Source: Xylanibacter ruminicola 23 | GTDB taxonomy: Bacteria; Bacteroidota; Bacteroidia; Bacteroidales; Bacteroidaceae | DNA length: 32,000 nt | NCBI RefSeq assembly: GCF_000025925.1 | Contig: NC_014033.1 | Location: forward strand, 3,180,001 to 3,212,000 | Direction: 5' to 3' | In this document: positions 13,895 to 27,750 of the stretch, piece by piece | How the letters are laid out: each line of letters begins with the position of its first letter | Position numbering within the stretch: the first letter of the stretch is position 1 | Notes under the pieces: generated by a model | Databases searched by the model: none | Told to the model about the DNA's origin: nothing | What the model saw: the letters and a program-made list of their open reading frames with translations, nothing else | Translations under genes and position numbers: made by a program

Positions 13895-14086
13895 GATTTA
13901 GGGGAGAGACTTAGAATCCCCGTGAAATGTTGTGTGAATAGCGGTGTCTTTGGCCGGGCATGGCGGTTCGTGAATCAGCGTTTCTTGCGACGTTAGACTG
14001 ACAACCGGGAGTTAGACCCTGGGAGTGAGTTTATGCGCGTACATATTTAATTATAAGTTAAACTGTTTTTTAGTAGTAAATTTAAA
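13895..14086 (+). promoter_or_regulatory. Long 5' leader of rplM, a candidate L13 autoregulatory leader
   Basis: About 190 nt lie between the promoter box and the rplM ATG. The segment is more GC-rich than the surrounding spacer. It has a hairpin gggga(N11)tcccc at 13901-13921 and repeated TTAGAC...GGGAG elements at 13992-14037. Confidence 0.4.
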
Positions 14087-21183: not shown

Positions 21184-21193
21184 GCAACTCAAA

Positions 21194-21228
21194 AAGCCCC
21201 CAAGAGTTTTTGGGACTCTTGAGGGCTT
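21194..21228. terminator. Bidirectional terminator hairpin between the LOG gene and the small-peptide gene
   Basis: aagcccccaagagt / actcttgagggctt stem (one bulge) with a 7-nt loop, flanked by an A-run upstream. Confidence 0.7.
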
Positions 21229-21236
21229 CTTAAGGT

Positions 21237-21341
21237 TTACAGGCTGCCCACACAACTGGTGGCGCCCAGGGCCGTTACAATCGCAGTGGCGATGCTGGCA
21301 ATCATCTGTAGGATGAACTTCATGGTTTCTTTCTTACTCAT
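21237..21341 (-). CDS. 34-aa single-pass membrane peptide ('smalltalk'-like small protein), absent from the supplied ORF track
   Basis: Hand translation of the minus strand gives MSKKETMKFILQMIASIATAIVTALGATSCVGSL followed by a stop. It has a charged N-terminus, a ~20-aa hydrophobic helix and a short SC-containing tail. It lies directly downstream of the HU-like gene, an arrangement I recall for the PGAP 'smalltalk protein' family in Bacteroidales. Confidence 0.6.
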   Translation of the reverse strand: MSKKETMKFILQMIASIATAIVTALGATSCVGSL

Positions 21342-21418
21342 AATGGTTAATGTTTAATGTTTAATGTTTAATGTTTAATCTTTAATGTTTAATGTTTAAT
21401 CTTTAATGTTTCATGTTA
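21342..21418 (-). repeat. Tandem heptad array, about 10 units of (C/G)ATTAAA, filling the HU-to-small-peptide spacer
   Basis: The minus strand reads cttaacatgaaacattaaagattaaacattaaacattaaagattaaacattaaacattaaacattaaccatt and runs directly into the ATG at 21341. Confidence 0.95.
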
Positions 21419-21442
21419 AGCGGGGGGCCTAAGCCCCAGCCG

Positions 21443-21982
21443 CTAATCGCCGATGGGTTCTTTACTGCCGCCGCCGGTGTTGCCACCCTGATTGCCGCTA
21501 CCCGAACCTCCACCGTTCGAGGGCTGATTGCCGCTTGGATTGGTGGGCTCATCATCTTCATCTTTGTAGTCGGTGAAGTTCTTAGGCAACTCGGTTACGT
21601 TACCAGCCTTGGTAAGCTCCTGTCGGGTAAACTCGCCAGTGGCACGGGCGCGCAGGTACACGCTGTCGATGTGCTTGGTGGTCGAGAAATCCTCGCTCTT
21701 CAGGGCACCGCCCTTGGCAGTCTCGATACCTGCCGAGAAGATAGCCAGGTTAGGCAGCTTAACGGCCTTGCCCTCCAGCACCAACTCGCGGATACATTCT
21801 ACCATGTCGGTCAGCATACCCTTGATGGCTCCCTTAGAGTAGGGCGTGTTGTGGCTCGACATGTGCTTGGCCAGCTCGTCCAGATCGATGGTTTTGCCGA
21901 TGGTAACGGCGCGTGCAAACCAACGTCCGTAAACGGCACTCTGCTTGTTCTTGTTCTGATACTTACGATAAAATACACTCAT
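21443..21982 (-). CDS. HU-family (Bacteroidales HU_HIG-like) DNA-binding protein with a Gly/Asn/Ser-rich tail
   Basis: 179 aa. N-terminus MSVFYRKYQNKNKQSAVYGRWFARAV... and core GAIKGMLTDMVECIRELVLEGKAVKLPNLAIFSAGIE are typical of the long HU-like proteins of Bacteroides/Prevotella. Low-complexity C-terminus SNGGGSGSGNQGGNTGGGS. Confidence 0.8.
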   Translation of the reverse strand: MSVFYRKYQNKNKQSAVYGRWFARAVTIGKTIDLDELAKHMSSHNTPYSKGAIKGMLTDMVECIRELVLEGKAVKLPNLAIFSAGIETAKGGALKSEDFSTTKHIDSVYLRARATGEFTRQELTKAGNVTELPKNFTDYKDEDDEPTNPSGNQPSNGGGSGSGNQGGNTGGGSKEPIGD

Positions 21983-22017
21983 AATGGTTAAAATTTAAAT
22001 GGTTAATACTAATGTTG

Positions 22018-22036
22018 TTTTGACGATGCAAAGGTA
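22018..22036 (-). promoter_or_regulatory. Promoter of the HU-like gene (TACCTTTG box plus conserved start region), paralogous to 24144-24162
   Basis: The minus strand reads TACCTTTGCATCGTCAAAA, a 19-nt sequence identical to 24144-24162 on the plus strand. The box is 47 nt upstream of the HU ATG. Confidence 0.6.
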
Positions 22037-22106
22037 CAACATTTTTGGTGCGAAACCAAATCCACAGGCCCTTGCACTGCAAAAATTTGTTAACGCTACG
22101 TTTACG

Positions 22107-22218
22107 CCTCGCAAACATAATATTTGCCCCTCGCAAACGCACCGTTTACAAATCGCAACAGCCCCGCATACTTTGTGACTGTGATTCTGTGACAATAAGC
22201 CCCTCTCGCAAATCGCAG
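22107..22218. repeat. Phased TCGCAA repeats (CCTCGCAAAC x2, plus AATCGCAAC, CTCGCAAATCGCA)
   Basis: TCGCA(A) starts at 22109, 22131 and 22153 (exact 22-bp phasing), and again at 22206 and 22213. Confidence 0.8.
22174..22194 (+). promoter_or_regulatory. Bipartite site TGTGAC-N8-TGTGACA (copy 1)
   Basis: tgtgactgtgattctgtgaca. It is near-identical, spacer included, to copy 3 at 27172-27193. Confidence 0.6.
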
Positions 22219-22238
22219 CCACAACCCATCCGTATAGT

Positions 22239-22275
22239 TTAAAAATAATATAATAAATTATTATATTATTTTTAA
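22239..22275. repeat. Perfect 37-bp all-A/T palindrome (18-bp arms around a central A)
   Basis: ttaaaaataatataataaattattatattatttttaa. I checked base by base that positions 22239-22256 pair with 22275-22258. Confidence 0.95.
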
Positions 22276-22308
22276 GTACCCATCGGCACCATTATCGTAC
22301 CACCTTAA

Positions 22309-22330
22309 TGTCACAAAGTCAAAAGTCACA
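22309..22330 (-). promoter_or_regulatory. Bipartite site TGTGAC-N9-TGTGACA (copy 2, inverted orientation)
   Basis: The plus strand tgtcacaaagtcaaaagtcaca has reverse complement tgtgacttttgactttgtgaca. Confidence 0.55.
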
Positions 22331-22399
22331 GAGTACAGAATGAATCATTAAAAAGCCATAAATTTCGGTCAGAATGATTGCAGAATAAGATAGAATGTT

Positions 22400-22407
22400 T
22401 AAATTTG
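22400..22407 (+). promoter_or_regulatory. -7 promoter box (TAAATTTG) for the 326-aa/188-aa gene pair
   Basis: Exact TAnnTTTG motif 29 nt upstream of the ATG at 22436. Confidence 0.5.
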
Positions 22408-22435
22408 CAGTCTTAAAAAATTAGAATGAGCAACT

Positions 22436-23416
22436 ATGGCACAGATAGAAACAGCCAGTGTGGAACTGGCGTGGGTTGAGAAAAATTTCTTTAAAGGGGC
22501 AGGTTTGGATAAGGCCAGCCGTTTGAAGGGTGATGAGCGCAGGGCTTATAGGCTTGCGCAAGTTGAGCGATTACTGGCAACGCCATGCGGATATACTACA
22601 GCAGCAATATGGTTGTCGGATAGGTTCTGGACGGCCGAAGAAGGCAGGAAGATATATGAAAAAGACCCTAATCCGCTGTTGCTGCTGAAGGAACAGCAAA
22701 CACTAGAGGATGACGAAATGGCGCGCTTGCGACTGATACTGGAGGTGGCCGGCTTGTGCCACGACCTGAGTTTGCACTATACGTTCAACCTGGATGACGC
22801 TTTCGGTGTTGAGAACAATTTCTGGGCGTCGAACAAGCAGTTAGTAGAGTGGCTTACAACAACCGAATATGAAAACATAGCAATGCACACGGCATATATT
22901 ATGAAGAAGTATGCTACTGGTGTGTATGCATGTGGTCGCTACCAACCTGCGCAAGATGCGCTGGCCGAACTTTTTTCGGTAGAGTATGGCAAACTTATAC
23001 GCGAACCTGAAAGAACAGAAATGCCCTCGCGTGCTTATGTTAAGATTGTTCTTGACGAGTTGATACGTATAGATGAGCATTGGAAGCAGGGGCGTAAGAA
23101 GAGGTTGAGACCAGATTTGATACTTCTTCACGACGAAATATATGGCGTGGTGCCCAACCAGTTTGACAATGATGTACTGAAGGCCGCAAAGGCGCTCTAC
23201 AATTATATGGACAACGATGTGTACGGGCGAATGGTAGGTAACAATCCTTTTGGGCCTGAGGCGCTGAAGCTCTTTGCTAAAAAGGTTCGTGAGGTTCGTG
23301 CTGAGTATTTGGCTGAAGGTTGGGTTGCCGACGATTCGTTGGAGTTTGCCTATTTGATGGCTCATGCCGAGAGTTGTGCTAATGGTTGGTGGCGAGAGGA
23401 GGACGAAGCCTTATGA
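22436..23416 (+). CDS. Hypothetical protein, 326 aa, no recognisable domain
   Basis: Long clean ORF with its own promoter box and balanced composition. I could find no Walker, nuclease, HTH or transmembrane signatures. Its stop overlaps the next start (ATGA at 23413-23416). Confidence 0.7.
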   Translation: MAQIETASVELAWVEKNFFKGAGLDKASRLKGDERRAYRLAQVERLLATPCGYTTAAIWLSDRFWTAEEGRKIYEKDPNPLLLLKEQQTLEDDEMARLRLILEVAGLCHDLSLHYTFNLDDAFGVENNFWASNKQLVEWLTTTEYENIAMHTAYIMKKYATGVYACGRYQPAQDALAELFSVEYGKLIREPERTEMPSRAYVKIVLDELIRIDEHWKQGRKKRLRPDLILLHDEIYGVVPNQFDNDVLKAAKALYNYMDNDVYGRMVGNNPFGPEALKLFAKKVREVRAEYLAEGWVADDSLEFAYLMAHAESCANGWWREEDEAL

Positions 23417-23979
23417 TGAGTAGTAATCGTAGCGACTATAAGTCGGCTTCGGAATGGCTATCTACACTTATACACGATGAGGCGTGGCTCACTCAACAAC
23501 AGCAGCTACAATCCTCAACTGCTGCCGATGCAAACGTACATCGCGACGCAGCCATCAGGCGTATTGGTATAGGTGAGACTTATGAGTTCTGGGAAATCCA
23601 CGGCCATCAGGTGGAGAAGGCGGTTAGCGAGGTTTGGGAGATAGCAGAGTTGTCGCTCCCAAAACTAAAGATTCAAACCATCGGCATGCTTTCGATGGCA
23701 TGGCTTGAGCAGCATACAGATGCACAATTAGACACAAAGCAGCAACAAGAAGTGGTTGAGAAACTGGCGCCCATATTTTTTGGACAGACAGAAGCAGCAA
23801 GAGAGTTTCTGGTGAGCATCAAAGGCATGAAGCCCACGCAGATTACCAACATGGTAAACCAGTTGGTATGCGATAAAAAAATATCGGAACTATCCATGCA
23901 TCGCGACTTGTGGCAGGTGTTGCACGACTATAAAATCTATACCAAATCGGAATCTAACTGGAATATGCAGGTAAAATAA
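23413..23979 (+). CDS. Hypothetical protein, 188 aa, Gln-rich with a helical C-terminal module
   Basis: The start is placed at the ATG of the ATGA overlap (MMSSNRSDYK...). The C-terminus PTQITNMVNQLVCDKKISELSMHRDLWQVLHDYKIYTKSESNWNMQV looks like a small HTH-like module, but the family is not identified. Confidence 0.65.
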   Translation: MMSSNRSDYKSASEWLSTLIHDEAWLTQQQQLQSSTAADANVHRDAAIRRIGIGETYEFWEIHGHQVEKAVSEVWEIAELSLPKLKIQTIGMLSMAWLEQHTDAQLDTKQQQEVVEKLAPIFFGQTEAAREFLVSIKGMKPTQITNMVNQLVCDKKISELSMHRDLWQVLHDYKIYTKSESNWNMQVK

Positions 23980-24005
23980 TTACTGCCCTAAAAAGTATTT
24001 AAACT

Positions 24006-24037
24006 AAGGAATCGGCGCTTGTCGGTTCCTTTTTTTG
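24006..24037 (+). terminator. Rho-independent terminator of the two-gene unit
   Basis: 9-bp stem aaggaatcg / cggttcctt (one G-U pair), 8-nt loop, followed by TTTTTT. Confidence 0.75.
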
Positions 24038-24044
24038 TATCTAT

Positions 24045-24094
24045 ACTTGTACAAAAACTTGTGTACGACTTGTATAAACTTGTAATTACTTGTA
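24045..24094 (+). repeat. Five direct ACTTGT(A/G) iterons at helical phasing
   Basis: Copies start at 24045, 24057, 24068, 24078 and 24088, giving spacings of 12, 11, 10 and 10 bp. The array is 50-100 bp upstream of the 24144 promoter box. Confidence 0.9.
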
Positions 24095-24143
24095 AATCAA
24101 TAGTTTACGAGTGGATAATCTTTTTTATTAGCTAAAATCGTCT

Positions 24144-24162
24144 TACCTTTGCATCGTCAAAA
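24144..24162 (+). promoter_or_regulatory. Promoter (TACCTTTG box plus conserved start region) of the small-ORF/145-aa/primase-like/DUF5675-like unit
   Basis: TACCTTTGCATCGTCAAAA is identical to the HU promoter region. Similarity continues downstream (AACA..AGTATT.AC). Confidence 0.6.
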
Positions 24163-24220
24163 AACAAAAGTATTCACTAAAGGTCGCTTTAAGGAGGCGA
24201 CGTTAAATAAAAAAATAATT

Positions 24221-24361
24221 ATGAGTCGTACACGTAATCACATCGTAATCGCACGAGGTATTATGGCTGAGAATTCACGTCGACAGATGTCGTTGATAAA
24301 CAGGTGCCAGATGCCTTACTCATCGAAGAAGGATTATCGCTTCGTGAACCACAAGTTCTAA
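24221..24361 (+). CDS. Possible 46-aa basic peptide (hypothetical)
   Basis: An ATG preceded by an A-rich leader (aaataaaaaaataatt) gives MSRTRNHIVIARGIMAENSRRQMSLINRCQMPYSSKKDYRFVNHKF. The track's 70-aa version starts at a TTG inside the promoter box. Coding status is uncertain. Confidence 0.35.
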   Translation: MSRTRNHIVIARGIMAENSRRQMSLINRCQMPYSSKKDYRFVNHKF

Positions 24362-24495
24362 ACCAACGGAAAGGATAGTCGAAAACCAACAATTAACATT
24401 ATTACTAATTTGAGCGAAGTGAGCTGAAGAAATCTCATGAGTTAAAGCTGGCCAGCGTTTCGCAAGGCTTCTTCACTCGCTAAATCGTTCAAAAC

Positions 24496-24933
24496 ATGCG
24501 AAAAGAATTTCTTACAAAGCACTTGTTGCAGCAGAACGTCCAGATGGACGGCAACGTTAACTTTATGGTGAATGGCGACATTAATATCCAGCCCTGCCCT
24601 TGGGAGCAGGATGTGGATCTGACCGATGGGCGCCCCGTTCACTACCTGGCTAACCTTGAGGTGATGGCCGATGGTCAGACTCGAGTAAAGGCCAAGCGCA
24701 CCGGCAGTCGCGGCCCGTTGTATCAAACACTGTTTGAGACTGCTCACGGCACTGTAAAGATAGTGCCCCAGCGCAAGCAGCGCCACCCTGAGCGCGAACA
24801 GCTGATAGTAGAGTTTAAGTTTCCTCGCCGCTATGGACTGGCGCTAACCAAGGCGCTCTATGAGGAGGAAGCAGATCAGGTATTGTCGTACTTTAAAACA
24901 CGAAAGGAGGAATGTTTATGGAATCAGCATTAA
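24496..24933 (+). CDS. Hypothetical protein, 145 aa
   Basis: ATG-initiated ORF co-oriented with the primase-like gene. Its 3' end overlaps that gene by 22 nt. No motif recognised. Confidence 0.55.
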   Translation: MRKEFLTKHLLQQNVQMDGNVNFMVNGDINIQPCPWEQDVDLTDGRPVHYLANLEVMADGQTRVKAKRTGSRGPLYQTLFETAHGTVKIVPQRKQRHPEREQLIVEFKFPRRYGLALTKALYEEEADQVLSYFKTRKEECLWNQH

Positions 24934-27176
24934 TCAGCACCATTAAATTTACATGTATTGGCAAGGGGCACGGCGCTCCTTGCACCCCCGCCAGCCGAGA
25001 GGAGTGGGAACAGCTACGCCGAGAGCCCTGGTTGGCACAGATGTGCGAGCGCATAGCCAAGGGCGACGATGAACTGAAGCACCGATTGCCTGTGTGGACA
25101 CCCCATTGCGCGGAGTTTGCCAACAATCACCGATCGATAGCCGATGCCATCAAGCCGCTTAACCGACTGATGCTGGACTTTGATGAGAAGGGACACACCG
25201 ACGACATTCTGTCGAAATTGAAAATTGAAAATGGAAAATTGAAAAATGGCTGCGCTGAGCCTGACTTGCACGGAATGGTGGTGCTGCTGGTTGAAGAATC
25301 GGTGCGCCATGGTACGCATGTGCTGGTAGAGTTGCCCGATGGGATGACTGCCGAACAGGCGCAGGAACTGATGCAAGAGGCTACGGGATTTGTACCCGAT
25401 GCTGCCGTAAAGGATGTGTCGCGTTGTATCTACATGGTGCCCGATGACCATACCCGCTACGTAAGCGAGCGGCTGTTTAATATAGGCACGGATGACACGG
25501 CTTCTAAAGAAAACACGGCTGACTGTGCTGTTGAAAAAAGCAGCGTCTCTCTAAAAGAGAGCTGTGTTAATCCGTGCCAAAAAGAATTTAAAGGCATACC
25601 CTACAGCTCTATCATAGCCGAGTGGTGGCACCGCAACGGGGGCGAGCCTGCCGAGGGCGAACGTAACGTAAAACTACACAAGTTGGCAGTAAATCTGCGC
25701 GCCATCTGCGATAATAAGAAAGAGGTGCTGATGCAGGTGATGCCCCGATTCGGACTGACCGATGCCGAACTTAAATCGGTAGTCGATTCGGCTTGCAAGG
25801 AAGAACCCAAAGGCGTTTCGAAGACGCTGTCTTCTATCATTGACAATTTATCATTAACCATTAACCATTCTGATGAGGAGGAGTTAGATGGTGCGGAAAA
25901 TGGTCAATCTTCAATGTTCAATGTTCAATGGAACAAACTGCCCATCGGACTGAAAGAGTCGTTGGTTGGTGTGCCCGTATCCATGCATATGCCTGTGCTG
26001 TGCGGCGTGCTGCCCATTGCGGCGGCCTATGCCGACCAGGTAACGGTGGAATATTGCGATGGCAACACCCAGCGCTTAGGTCTGATGTCGATAATCCGTG
26101 GCGAGCAGGCCAGCAACAAATCGGTAGTAAAGAATGCTGTTGACATCTGGAAACGACAGCTTGACGAGGAAGATGCCCTGGCCCGCAAGCGCGAAGAGGA
26201 GTGGAAGGAGCGCAAAAAGGGGCGCAAAGCCAGCGAGAAGGCACCCGAAGATCCGCATGTATTGATTCGCGTAGTGCCCGTAACCGTTAGCTGCTCAACG
26301 TTGCTTAAGCGTTTCAAGAACGCTCAGAACCACACCCTGTACAGCTTTGGTGAGGAACTCGACACGCTGCGTAAAACCAACGGAGCCGGTTCGTGGTCGA
26401 GCAAATACGATATTTATCGCTTGGGTTTCGACTATGGCGAATGGGGACAGGATTACAATAGCGATGCAGCCGAGAGTGGTGTGGTAAACGTGGCATATAA
26501 CTGGACTATGCTGGGAACAAACGGCGCCCTGCGCAAGTGCTTTAAGGCCGATAACATAGAGAACGGACTCTCGAGCCGTGTGTTGGTGGCCGAAATGCCT
26601 GATGCCAGCTTTGCCAAGATGCCTAAGTTCCGCAAGCGATCGGACGAGGATGTGGCCAGGATACAAGAGGCCGTGAGCCGTTTGCGTGGCTACTCAGGAT
26701 TGGTTGACACACCCCGCCTGCGCAAAGCCATCGAGGGCTGGGTAGAGCAGAAACGCATAGAGGCAGCCAAGGATATCGACCACGTAAAGGATACCTATCG
26801 TAAGCGTGCTGCCGTTATCGGCTTCCGCTGTGGCGTGGTGTTCCACCTGCTGAGCGGTTGCAACAAGGAGAGTAAGGCCTGTACCGATTTTGCGCTGATG
26901 ATGGCCGAATACTGCCTGCAGCAGCAGATAAAGGCCTTTGGCGAGGCACTCGAAAGTCAGTTCCTGGATGCCCGCGACGAGTGTGTGCGTTATGGCTCTA
27001 ACCACTCTATCTTCGATCAGCTGGCACCTACGTTTACCATGGACGATTTGCGTGCGCTGAAGCGAGGATTCTGCGGCGAGGCCGGGCTGCGAAAAATCAT
27101 TTCGCGCTGGTATCGCGACCAGTGGATTGAGAAAACCGACCGCACGCACTGGAAGAAACTAAACACTACTGTGTGA
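24912..27176 (+). CDS. Primase-helicase-like protein: BT4734/VirE_N-type N-terminal domain plus DUF3987-like C-terminal domain
   Basis: 754 aa. The N-terminal pattern KHRLPVWTPHCAEF...NRLMLDFDEKGH matches the LP...F...(S)G(L)..(L)DfD signature I associate with VirE_N/BT4734-like domains. The large C-terminal region resembles DUF3987 proteins of Bacteroidales. An SD-like aaaggagg lies at 24904-24910. I could find no canonical Walker A. Confidence 0.6.
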   Translation: MFMESALISTIKFTCIGKGHGAPCTPASREEWEQLRREPWLAQMCERIAKGDDELKHRLPVWTPHCAEFANNHRSIADAIKPLNRLMLDFDEKGHTDDILSKLKIENGKLKNGCAEPDLHGMVVLLVEESVRHGTHVLVELPDGMTAEQAQELMQEATGFVPDAAVKDVSRCIYMVPDDHTRYVSERLFNIGTDDTASKENTADCAVEKSSVSLKESCVNPCQKEFKGIPYSSIIAEWWHRNGGEPAEGERNVKLHKLAVNLRAICDNKKEVLMQVMPRFGLTDAELKSVVDSACKEEPKGVSKTLSSIIDNLSLTINHSDEEELDGAENGQSSMFNVQWNKLPIGLKESLVGVPVSMHMPVLCGVLPIAAAYADQVTVEYCDGNTQRLGLMSIIRGEQASNKSVVKNAVDIWKRQLDEEDALARKREEEWKERKKGRKASEKAPEDPHVLIRVVPVTVSCSTLLKRFKNAQNHTLYSFGEELDTLRKTNGAGSWSSKYDIYRLGFDYGEWGQDYNSDAAESGVVNVAYNWTMLGTNGALRKCFKADNIENGLSSRVLVAEMPDASFAKMPKFRKRSDEDVARIQEAVSRLRGYSGLVDTPRLRKAIEGWVEQKRIEAAKDIDHVKDTYRKRAAVIGFRCGVVFHLLSGCNKESKACTDFALMMAEYCLQQQIKAFGEALESQFLDARDECVRYGSNHSIFDQLAPTFTMDDLRALKRGFCGEAGLRKIISRWYRDQWIEKTDRTHWKKLNTTV

Positions 27177-27193
27177 CGTGTGATTATGTGACA
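27172..27193 (+). promoter_or_regulatory. Bipartite site TGTGAC-N9-TGTGACA (copy 3)
   Basis: tgtgacgtgtgattatgtgaca. It overlaps the primase-like stop codon (TGA 27174-27176) and is about 50 nt upstream of the next ATG. Confidence 0.6.
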
Positions 27194-27203
27194 TTTAGTA
27201 CAT

Positions 27204-27241
27204 TAAACATTAAAGATTAAACATTAAAGATTAAACATTTT
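27204..27241 (+). repeat. Tandem heptad leader (TAAACAT/TAAAGAT)x5 abutting the 27242 start codon
   Basis: taaacattaaagattaaacattaaagattaaacatttt runs directly into the ATG. Confidence 0.9.
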
Positions 27242-27733
27242 ATGGAGATTATATTAACACGCATAGCTAAGCGCCAGCAGTACACGATAGGTAGGCTGGC
27301 CATTGTAGAACGTACCGACGATGAGTATCTGGCTGGTGAGCGCGAGGTGTATTTTTGCGATACCCTCGAACCGCCTGTCATCCAGACTAAAACTACCGTA
27401 TCGCTGGCTTCGGTGCTGCGTTCGCCCGTAAAACTTAAATCTATCAAGCCCGTGGCCATCCCCGAAGGCCGCTACGCAGTAGTTATTACCTACTCCCCAA
27501 AGTTCAACAAGTGGTTACCGCTGCTGTTGGGTGGTCAGGACTTTAACCGCCTGTGGCAGGGCATACGCATACACTTTGGCAACACCGTTGCCGATACGCA
27601 GGGTTGCATACTGCTGGGGCGCAACCAGCGCGTGGGCAGGTTGTTTGAGAGTCGTAAGTGGGTGTACGAGCTAAAGCAGAAAATCATCGAAGCCAAGGCC
27701 CGAAAAGAAGCAGTGTGGATTACCATCAGGTAG
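27242..27733 (+). CDS. DUF5675-like protein with an H-x-GN...DT-x-GC motif (possible YkuD-like / cell-wall-active fold)
   Basis: 163 aa. IPEGRYAVVITYSPKFNKWLPLL...GIRIHFGNTVADTQGCILLG matches my recollection of the DUF5675 core (RY.v....SPKF....P.L..V.g..gI.IH.GN...DT.GCIl.G). No signal peptide. Confidence 0.5.
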   Translation: MEIILTRIAKRQQYTIGRLAIVERTDDEYLAGEREVYFCDTLEPPVIQTKTTVSLASVLRSPVKLKSIKPVAIPEGRYAVVITYSPKFNKWLPLLLGGQDFNRLWQGIRIHFGNTVADTQGCILLGRNQRVGRLFESRKWVYELKQKIIEAKARKEAVWITIR

Positions 27734-27750
27734 TCCACACTGGCTTTTAT
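27711..27750. terminator. Bidirectional terminator hairpin spanning the end of the DUF5675-like gene
   Basis: 9-bp stem cagtgtgga / tccacactg with a 14-nt loop containing the stop codon. It is followed by gcttttat on the plus strand and cttcttttcg on the minus strand. The dpp gene converges on it. Confidence 0.65.

Follow-up and report, generated by a model that had tools for sequence, protein, structure and literature searches.

Positions 21194..27682 of the window considered here, namely a 32-kb stretch (32,000 nucleotides) of contig NC_014033.1 of Xylanibacter ruminicola 23 in whose numbering all coordinates below are given, form an accessory, strain-variable island of rumen Prevotella. 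Comparison of this block with related loci suggests that it probably belongs to a family of integrase-less, satellite-like replicon islands of rumen Prevotellaceae, built around a replication module that specifies its own target. Central to this reading are P754, a 754-aa protein containing DUF3987 that is the predicted initiator (24912..27176, + strand), and three arrays of short direct repeats (iterons), the sequence type of which covaries with a few residues near the C-terminus of P754. The block was first described in an earlier note that listed eight open reading frames (ORFs), i.e., those encoding smalltalk, an HU-like protein, p326, p188, p46, p145, P754 and a DUF5675 protein, all of which exist as described there.

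Two of the iteron arrays flank a symmetric A/T-rich element. The left array, with a GTGAC core and ending in CAATAAG (22175..22199, + strand), and the right array (22304..22329, - strand) converge on a perfect 37-bp palindrome composed only of A and T (22239..22275; repeat I17), which is the predicted DNA-unwinding centre. The third array (27173..27198, + strand) is found at the other end of the block, where it begins 3 bases ahead of the last base of the P754 stop codon. The pattern GTGACN{2,3}TGANNNTGTGACAWTWAG was matched three times in the 32 kb, all within the block, where no match was expected. The 181-nt origin-like element was, moreover, seen to fold as single-stranded DNA much better than shuffled sequences (z = -5.9).

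This arrangement recurs well beyond the source genome. A scan of one genome per species revealed at least 220 loci encoding a relative of P754, of which the best 80, all from Prevotellaceae and with P754 identities of 59-88%, were analysed. In nearly every locus, 3-5 direct repeats begin at or just before the P754 stop codon, upstream of DUF5675, with a unit of 8-9 bp that ends in CATTAAG(G). The unit varies by locus (TGTGACnn, CGTCCCAn, TTGCCACA, TGTAACAn, AATGACA and others), while all arrays of a given locus carry a single core type. In the approximately 40 loci for which upstream DNA was available, this array (29 nt) recurs as a + and a - copy, 120-200 bp apart, and the distal pair so formed converges on a run of A and T only (median length 36.5 bp), within which a perfect palindrome is found (median 30 bp). 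The distal pair lies 100-480 bp upstream of the HU start in 19/19 loci where HU was called.

The iteron core was typed in 64-65 loci and then compared with protein identity. Across the whole protein, identities between loci of the same and of different types were 0.74 and 0.71 for P754, 0.57 and 0.59 for p145, and 0.34 and 0.33 for HU, respectively. When a sliding window was applied, the signal was found in the last 45 residues of P754, with a difference of 0.18 at residues 712-745. As candidate iteron readers, p145 was rejected, showing no covariation with type, as was HU, which gave only a weak signal reaching a maximum of 0.12 in its poorly conserved C-terminal part. The most informative P754 columns were 728, 731, 720 and 734. 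Given their i, i+3, i+6 spacing, residues 728, 731 and 734 lie on one face of the helix LRKIISRWYRD, the predicted recognition helix. The surrounding region (residues ~707-750, encoded by 27030..27161, + strand) is predicted to form a winged-helix-like specificity domain, with a low-confidence model of the P754 C-terminus placing a helix at residues 710-720, a second helix at residues 723-736 and then two short strands, in a winged-helix pattern.

The correspondence between these residues and the repeats was mapped using the distal arrays only, which lie kilobases away from the 3' end of the P754 gene. Residues 728/731/734 were lysine, serine and any residue in 19/19 loci with GTGAC iterons; asparagine, methionine and lysine in 8/8 loci with GTCCC iterons; asparagine, threonine and either arginine or histidine in 6/6 loci with GCCAC iterons; and methionine or valine, serine and methionine in 4/4 loci with GTAAC iterons. 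When iteron type was placed on a neighbour-joining tree of P754 residues 1-690, at least 21 changes were needed, whereas shuffled types required 29 on average and never fewer than 24. As such, the helix motif agrees with the iteron type in every sequence, even though type is almost unlinked to residues 1-690. Because the helix always matches despite at least 21 changes of type, the match appears to have been kept against recombination. Taken together, these comparisons argue strongly, if indirectly, for binding of the iterons by the C-terminal domain of P754 and for selection that keeps the protein fitted to its sites, an assignment in which we place more confidence than in the replicon reading as a whole. 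The idea raised in the earlier note of a satellite-type replicon with iterons and an A/T-rich unwinding element is thus strongly backed by iteron/helix covariation across 40-64 loci; that the replicon is degenerate, as was also proposed, is unlikely, since the match between initiator and iterons is actively maintained.

Of the 'VirE_N/DUF3987' label previously given to P754, only the second part stood. DUF3987 (PF13148) was matched by 30/30 members of the P754 family (best E-value, 1.1e-8), with the window protein itself scoring 26.1 bits against a cut-off of 27 bits, whereas VirE_N was matched by none. Inspection for AEP motifs I (hhhDhD), II (sxH) and III (hD) revealed the invariant AEP-like motifs LMLDFD, GTH and D..R..MVP in the N-terminus of P754. 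The central DUF3987 region contains a deviant Walker A motif, GEQASNKS, that is missing the second glycine. Across the family, hundreds of P754 residues are invariant. A protein identical over all 754 aa is encoded on contig BPTT01000001.1 of GCA_019973335.1, and thousands of P754-family protein clusters are found in rumen metagenomes.

To describe what surrounds P754, ORFs were clustered over 81 loci, comprising the 80 relatives and the source contig. P754 is encoded in 81/81 loci, directly followed by DUF5675 in 63/81 and directly preceded by p145 in 58/81, with the order and strand of these three genes being constant. Genes encoding HU and smalltalk are found upstream on the opposite strand, at a distance of 0.3 to 9 kb. 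The conserved frame thus has smalltalk and HU-HIG at its left end and p145, P754 and DUF5675 at its right end, and the content in between varies. Genes outside the frame are unrelated housekeeping genes, and the chromosomal contexts differ between species; no recombinase or integrase recurs in the flanks of the 80 related loci. In the window, the frame comprises smalltalk (DUF6486; 34 aa; 21237..21341, - strand; Pfam 47 bits, NCBIfam smalltalk 52.7 bits), an HU-HIG family protein with a glycine-rich tail (21443..21982, - strand; 41 bits), the orphan p145 (24496..24933, + strand), the 3' end of which overlaps the P754 start and which is translationally coupled to it, P754, and the DUF5675 protein (27242..27733, + strand; 83.6 bits).

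The region between HU and p145 serves as a bay for cargo. Considered in 40 loci, it measures 1.4-8.4 kb and holds 95 ORF families, nearly all of them co-oriented. Among these are restriction-modification systems (type IIG, MmeI-like, and EcoRII with Dcm and Vsr), toxin-antitoxin and related proteins (HicB, YafQ, PIN, nucleotidyltransferase), YhcG-type PDDEXK nucleases, HIRAN-domain proteins, BspA-type leucine-rich repeat surface proteins, and Bro-N/ANT, KilA-N, ORF6N and RhuM-like proteins, with antirepressor-like genes thus also represented. Accessory and defence genes of this sort are typical of mobile elements. In the window, the bay is occupied by p326 (22436..23416, + strand) and p188 (23413..23979, + strand), joined via an ATGA overlap. 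This pair is the most frequent cargo, being present in 14/81 loci, yet it is one of many. The eight genes do not, therefore, constitute a single co-conserved unit, as had been supposed, with p326/p188 instead being interchangeable across the 81 loci. The same can be seen at the site itself, as the position between the LOG-family gene on the left of the block and the S46 dipeptidyl-peptidase gene on its right is shared only by the four closest relatives, two of which (L007 and L065) contain different genes where p326/p188 are found.

The cargo and neighbouring proteins of the window are for the most part lineage-restricted orphans, with homologue searches returning 811 matches for p145, 367 for p188 and 102 for p326. 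No Pfam domains were detected on p145 or p188 homologues, PADLOC, PHROGs and NCBIfam held nothing for p326, p188, p46 or p145, and p145 had no relative in the PDB in sequence and profile searches. The p326 model is confident and all-alpha (predicted local distance difference test score, pLDDT, of 93.7), and a Foldseek comparison of this fold with the PDB and BFVD returned nothing better than E = 0.78 and a template-modelling score of 0.24. In profile-profile comparison of the cargo families, the only link detected was between p188, by way of its C-terminal ~70 aa, and the C-terminus of a HIRAN-domain cargo protein found in the same slot (98% probability). With this being the single link, the slot is truly variable, rather than occupied by one fast-evolving family. 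In four loci, a 416-aa HIRAN-domain protein (cluster c32) is encoded directly upstream of P754 in place of p145 (L025:7863-9110, L062, L066 and L072), with a C-terminus homologous to that of p188. The small ORF p46 (24221..24361, + strand), the status of which is uncertain, was detected by tblastn in ~25 related loci.

Several metagenome-assembled genomes carry two copies of the island, mostly of different iteron types. The pairs of loci from a common genome are L028/L076, L043/L061, L012/L034, L053/L062 and L009/L068. Such co-resident copies usually differ in iteron type (GTCCC versus GCCAC; GTAAC versus ATGAC), while for copies with an equal core, the difference lies in residue 734 of the helix and in how the arrays are laid out. 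Such differences are consistent with avoidance of cross-talk between co-resident copies.

Strain-level variability was considered using the LOG gene as an anchor to collect 80 rumen metagenome contigs, none of which contained any of the block genes. Four of these (L086, L088, L089 and L091) were taken as conspecific on the basis of flank identity (94-100% for the LOG protein, 92-98% for the flanking DNA). In each, homology with the window ends at 21193 and restarts at 27683-27685, with a 1.4-kb gene encoding ~400 aa replacing the block (L086:1473-2843, - strand). Judged by eye, this replacement gene looks like a serine hydrolase or beta-lactamase, given its SxxK motif. After it come the final 50 nt of DUF5675 (L086:2934-2990) and the same terminator. 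This 3' remnant of DUF5675 is a scar, showing that the conspecific contigs once contained the island. In more distant relatives, the LOG and S46 genes are adjacent and separated by one shared hairpin, corresponding to an empty site. Such presence/absence polymorphism shows that the block does not belong to an invariant core genome, and upholds the earlier description of an integrase-less, accessory block. Likewise confirmed, by family and tRNA searches and by comparison of the borders, was the reported lack of integrase, capsid, terminase and relaxase genes, of tRNA and of border duplications: no block protein matched an integrase, capsid, terminase or relaxase family in family-library searches, no tRNA was found in the window, and no target-site duplication was visible at the island borders.

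The outermost genes of the frame appear to form an envelope-acting pair. In 36 loci, smalltalk retains the motif LG[ATV][TA][SA]C, which resembles a lipobox and after which just 2-7 residues remain. With such a motif and so short a tail, smalltalk is likelier to be a lipoprotein signal peptide than a holin, and its sequence suggests that it releases a tiny lipidated mature peptide of 3-8 residues. The DUF5675 protein (PF18925), a putative C82-like (YkuD-fold) peptidoglycan peptidase, contains the invariant motif IHxGN...DTxGCIL, with H111 and C122 being invariant in 23 sequences. In a 2026 preprint, DUF5675 was placed by structure among the C82 (L,D-transpeptidase-fold) peptidases and considered a candidate lysin; a sequence-profile search of the PDB with DUF5675 returned no match. 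The motif and the C82-like class both fit the prior proposal of a wall-active His/Cys enzyme. In the window, a tandem of the heptamer (AACATTA)n precedes both genes, with 11 A/T-rich copies (coding strand) found directly 5' of the smalltalk ATG (21341..21417, - strand) and 5.7 copies, in the register ACATTAA, directly 5' of the DUF5675 ATG (27200..27239, + strand). Across the family, the smalltalk and DUF5675 leaders are locus-specific and covary within loci, and the two genes are therefore probably co-regulated.

A further element of control is a promoter box upstream of HU, TACCTTTGCATCGTCAAAA, which includes the Bacteroides -7 element TAnnTTTG (22018..22046, - strand; repeat I13). The promoter box of the p46-p145-P754 operon (24134..24162, + strand) has 19 nt in common with it, and this 19-nt box recurs in part of the family. 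Together with the three arrays, against zero expected, and the common heptamer leaders, it bears out the statement that the block has its own shared control DNA.

We infer replication, origin firing, its trigger and the roles of HU-HIG, smalltalk and DUF5675 from these features, in the following manner. P754, as a DUF3987-type primase-helicase-like protein, would read the island's own iterons through its C-terminal winged-helix-like domain, assemble head-to-head on the two converging arrays and melt the A/T palindrome, before priming and unwinding DNA. HU-HIG, always encoded beside the origin, would probably bend origin DNA. The third array, which can be compared with the iterons 3' of SaPI rep or with the crr element of phage P4, could control copy number or gate read-through into DUF5675. 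The DNA separating the origin from the initiator operon would be a bay for swappable cargo, and smalltalk and DUF5675 would be expressed together as an envelope-acting pair, probably when the element is active. Firing might occur in place or after excision, with the trigger being most plausibly phage infection or DNA damage.

Several observations weigh against this proposal. No circular form was detected, with 0/22 whole-contig loci showing terminal overlap. No integrase, excisionase, relaxase or packaging gene that could account for mobility is present. A distance of 2.6-8 kb separates the main origin-like element from the initiator gene, unlike the directly 3' position seen in staphylococcal pathogenicity islands (SaPIs). 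Relatives of P754 were found in none of 72,556 plasmid records, while 50,697 phage records yielded one weak match and IMG/VR a single contig. As for the protein itself, none of 30 family members matched VirE_N (PF08800) at E ≤ 0.1, such that the primase assignment rests on motifs; ATPase activity is uncertain because of the deviant Walker A motif; sequence and profile searches revealed no P754 relative in the PDB; and the AlphaFold2 model of P754, built with 14 close homologues, was unusable (pLDDT 36.5), because of which the winged-helix call rests on the pattern of secondary structure and on covariation. Finally, the iterons could be transcriptional operators instead of, or besides, an origin.

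This last idea can be developed into an alternative account, which we regard as possible but not likely, whereby P754 or another island protein is a domesticated regulator that acts at the iterons to repress the divergent HU and cargo promoters and to block read-through into DUF5675, and no self-replication takes place. The location of two arrays fits this account, one lying within a divergent promoter region and the other precisely in the gap that separates P754 from DUF5675, and the absence of circular forms among the 22 whole-contig loci and the deviant Walker A motif also speak for it. Rep proteins of iteron plasmids are known to autoregulate via their own repeats, and regulation through the arrays would have parallels in such proteins. 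Still, converging arrays around a 30-40-bp A/T-only palindrome correspond to a typical origin layout that repression does not need, and the strong purifying selection on the AEP-like motifs and DUF3987 core (59-100% identity) would be odd for a mere DNA binder. A second account, which we find rather improbable, sees the block as an anti-phage abortive-infection or lysis module, with P754 sensing phage DNA or replication, smalltalk and DUF5675 lysing the cell, and the iterons tuning expression. In its favour are the richness of related cargo bays in restriction-modification, toxin-antitoxin and PDDEXK nuclease genes, the classification of DUF5675 as a C82-like candidate lysin, the leaders common to smalltalk and DUF5675, and the strain-variable nature of the island. 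However, no protein of the window, and thus none of the block, matched a defence family in PADLOC (best E = 0.033, with no stretch covered), the lipobox-like smalltalk with its mature part of 3-8 residues is unlike a holin, and a sensor role leaves the co-evolving iteron/helix system unexplained. A defence function would, in any case, be compatible with the replicon reading rather than exclusive of it, since satellites often carry defence genes.

The two remaining accounts fare worse. That the block is a decaying, functionless remnant of a prophage, an integrative and conjugative element or an integrated plasmid could be argued from the absence of integrase, capsid and transfer genes and from the deletion scar inside DUF5675 in the conspecific contigs. 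Yet at least 80 species retain the frame, hundreds of P754 residues are invariant, all ORFs are intact, and iteron/helix pairing is perfect despite at least 21 switches of type, when decay would break such matches first; this account is accordingly very unlikely. Least credible of all is an ordinary core-genome housekeeping role combining a nucleoid protein with cell-wall turnover, as the HU-like and wall-active annotations might suggest, given that the block is missing from this site in conspecific and related genomes, while elsewhere it is found in unrelated contexts and sometimes in two copies.

The replicon reading gains from comparison with known elements. In SaPIs, the C-terminal winged helix of Rep reads island-specific iterons, which flank an AT-rich region in opposite orientations and are located just downstream of rep; in SaPI5, Pri and Rep are fused in one polypeptide (PMC9371898). 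DUF3987 itself has been predicted to be a family of helicases linked to the primases of mobile elements (PMC5862659). Like SaPIs and other phage-inducible chromosomal islands, the present block has iterons flanking an AT-rich region, together with some 3' of the initiator, with the winged-helix C-terminus being a prediction in this case, as well as specificity that is diversified between co-occurring islands and a helicase belonging to a 'DUF' P-loop family of mobile-element primases. It differs from them in having no integrase, att repeats, packaging or capsid-remodelling genes, or recognisable Stl-type master repressor, in its helicase being DUF3987 rather than DUF927, in its two-armed origin lying 2.6-8 kb upstream beyond the cargo bay, and in its Bacteroidota host and its HU-HIG, smalltalk and DUF5675 set; replication, moreover, is in this case a proposal. 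Pfam and PHROG searches yielded no match to packaging or capsid-interference genes (terS, cpm, ppi and similar) in the window, and none was found among the cargo families; the same searches of the window showed no portal or tail genes either. Similarly, no Pfam for a relaxase, type IV secretion system genes or a plasmid Rep family was detected in window proteins or cargo families.

The alpha protein of phage P4 combines primase, helicase and a C-terminal winged-helix origin binder in one polypeptide. P4 needs octamer iterons at both ori and crr, which are several kb apart and bracket the initiator gene, and P4-like elements contain a variable hotspot with defence genes. In the present block, too, the initiator gene is bracketed by iterons that are kilobases apart and a variable cargo site is found. 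Unlike P4, the block has no integrase, sid/delta/psu or immunity RNA, and no sequence homology between P754 and alpha was detected.

In iteron theta plasmids (RepA/pi/TrfA), initiator-bound direct repeats beside an A/T-rich unwinding element correspond to the layout of the block, while the help of HU/IHF at the origin and the use of extra iterons for copy control resemble what is proposed here (PMC4980987). The block differs from such plasmids in that its initiator is a large primase-helicase-like protein and not a WH1-WH2 Rep, in being chromosomal, and in its lack of partition or transfer genes. At the level of annotation, the block also resembles the HU-smalltalk-amidase-DUF4248/VirE/DUF3987 set of Bacteroidales, with HU-HIG then smalltalk, a wall-active enzyme and DUF3987 on the opposite strand. 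In Bacteroides thetaiotaomicron, the amidase BT0706 and the DUF3987 protein BT0709 are listed in PMC10434189. Unlike in that set, DUF5675 here replaces the amidase and sits at the end of the DUF3987 operon; neither N-acetylmuramoyl-L-alanine amidase nor DUF4248 was found in the block, with DUF5675 and p145 occupying comparable positions. The study that defined the HU-HIG clade reported no conserved gene linkage for HU-HIG (PMC5499826).

In the literature searched, nothing was found that describes these islands or that links iterons with Prevotella or satellites with Bacteroidota, and no phage-satellite-like or iteron-controlled island has been described there in Bacteroidota. Bacteroidales genomes hold many unexplained sets of HU-like, smalltalk, wall-enzyme and DUF3987 genes, and for one large family of these, a testable model is now offered, in which three residues of the initiator helix would predict the DNA repeat to be bound and in which a candidate origin and cargo bay are defined. 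Should the origin work, it would be useful for Prevotella genetics, a field short of tools, both as a replicon and as a specificity toolkit, and would explain the turnover of defence cargo at these sites. A more speculative extension, which we put forward tentatively, is that these islands represent a new class of mobile or semi-mobile Bacteroidota elements, namely integrase-less 'replicative cargo islands' in which a trigger such as phage infection would set off over-replication, in place or as circles, with amplification of a swappable defence or antirepressor cargo and with envelope action by a lipidated mini-peptide and a C82-like peptidase, and that the same logic of iterons, winged helix and origin applies to the many HU-smalltalk-amidase-DUF3987 sets of Bacteroides and Prevotella genomes.

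Additional observations concern the arrays. The motif TAAGGAGG found beside the iterons was considered as a plain Shine-Dalgarno sequence and rejected, as it also ends distal arrays that have no following gene. In one locus, 16 tandem AGTTGAC/AGTTGAT copies come directly after P754, ahead of normal GTGAC iterons (L012:2368-2478). A fourth array is found on the minus strand beyond smalltalk in four loci (L010:197, L069:208, L011:892 and L021:2849), lying in L011 and L021 beyond three extra leftward genes (encoding 821, 146 and 197 aa). This fourth array may correspond to the left end of the element.

Other repeats and signals are found near the leaders of the envelope pair. In loci without heptamers, a perfect Shine-Dalgarno sequence, AAGGAGGT, is present 5-10 nt before the ATG of smalltalk (L005, L009 and L039) or DUF5675 (L016, L033, L037, L042, L053 and L059). 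Since perfect Shine-Dalgarno sequences are uncommon in Bacteroidia, the two genes may be translated under a regime of their own. A GC-rich hairpin, GGGGCCTAAGCCCC, that has no T-tract separates the HU stop codon from the smalltalk leader (21421-21440); most loci have an equivalent hairpin at this place, and some have one after the iterons, ahead of the DUF5675 leader. Heptamer tandems are also present inside the P754 gene (AAATTGA, 25215-25245; CATTAAC, 25852-25869; and AATGTTC, 25899-25930), where they fall in the two poorly conserved linker segments and resemble the leader heptamers, with one being 81% complementary to the smalltalk leader (repeat I9). These may be slippage-prone or inserted repeat DNA.

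As for the borders, terminator-like hairpins were found at both ends of the block, as previously noted. That on the left (21198..21215, - strand) comes after smalltalk and the LOG gene, while that on the right (27711..27742, + strand) has a 14-bp stem. A third such hairpin closes the cargo operon (24006..24031, + strand). All three were identified by a hairpin scan, in which terminator-like sites across the region overall showed no excess over chance. Elsewhere in the window, an L13-Bacteroidia ribosomal-protein leader (RF03127, 69.6 bits; 13901-13976, + strand) confirms that the stretch derives from a Bacteroidia chromosome.

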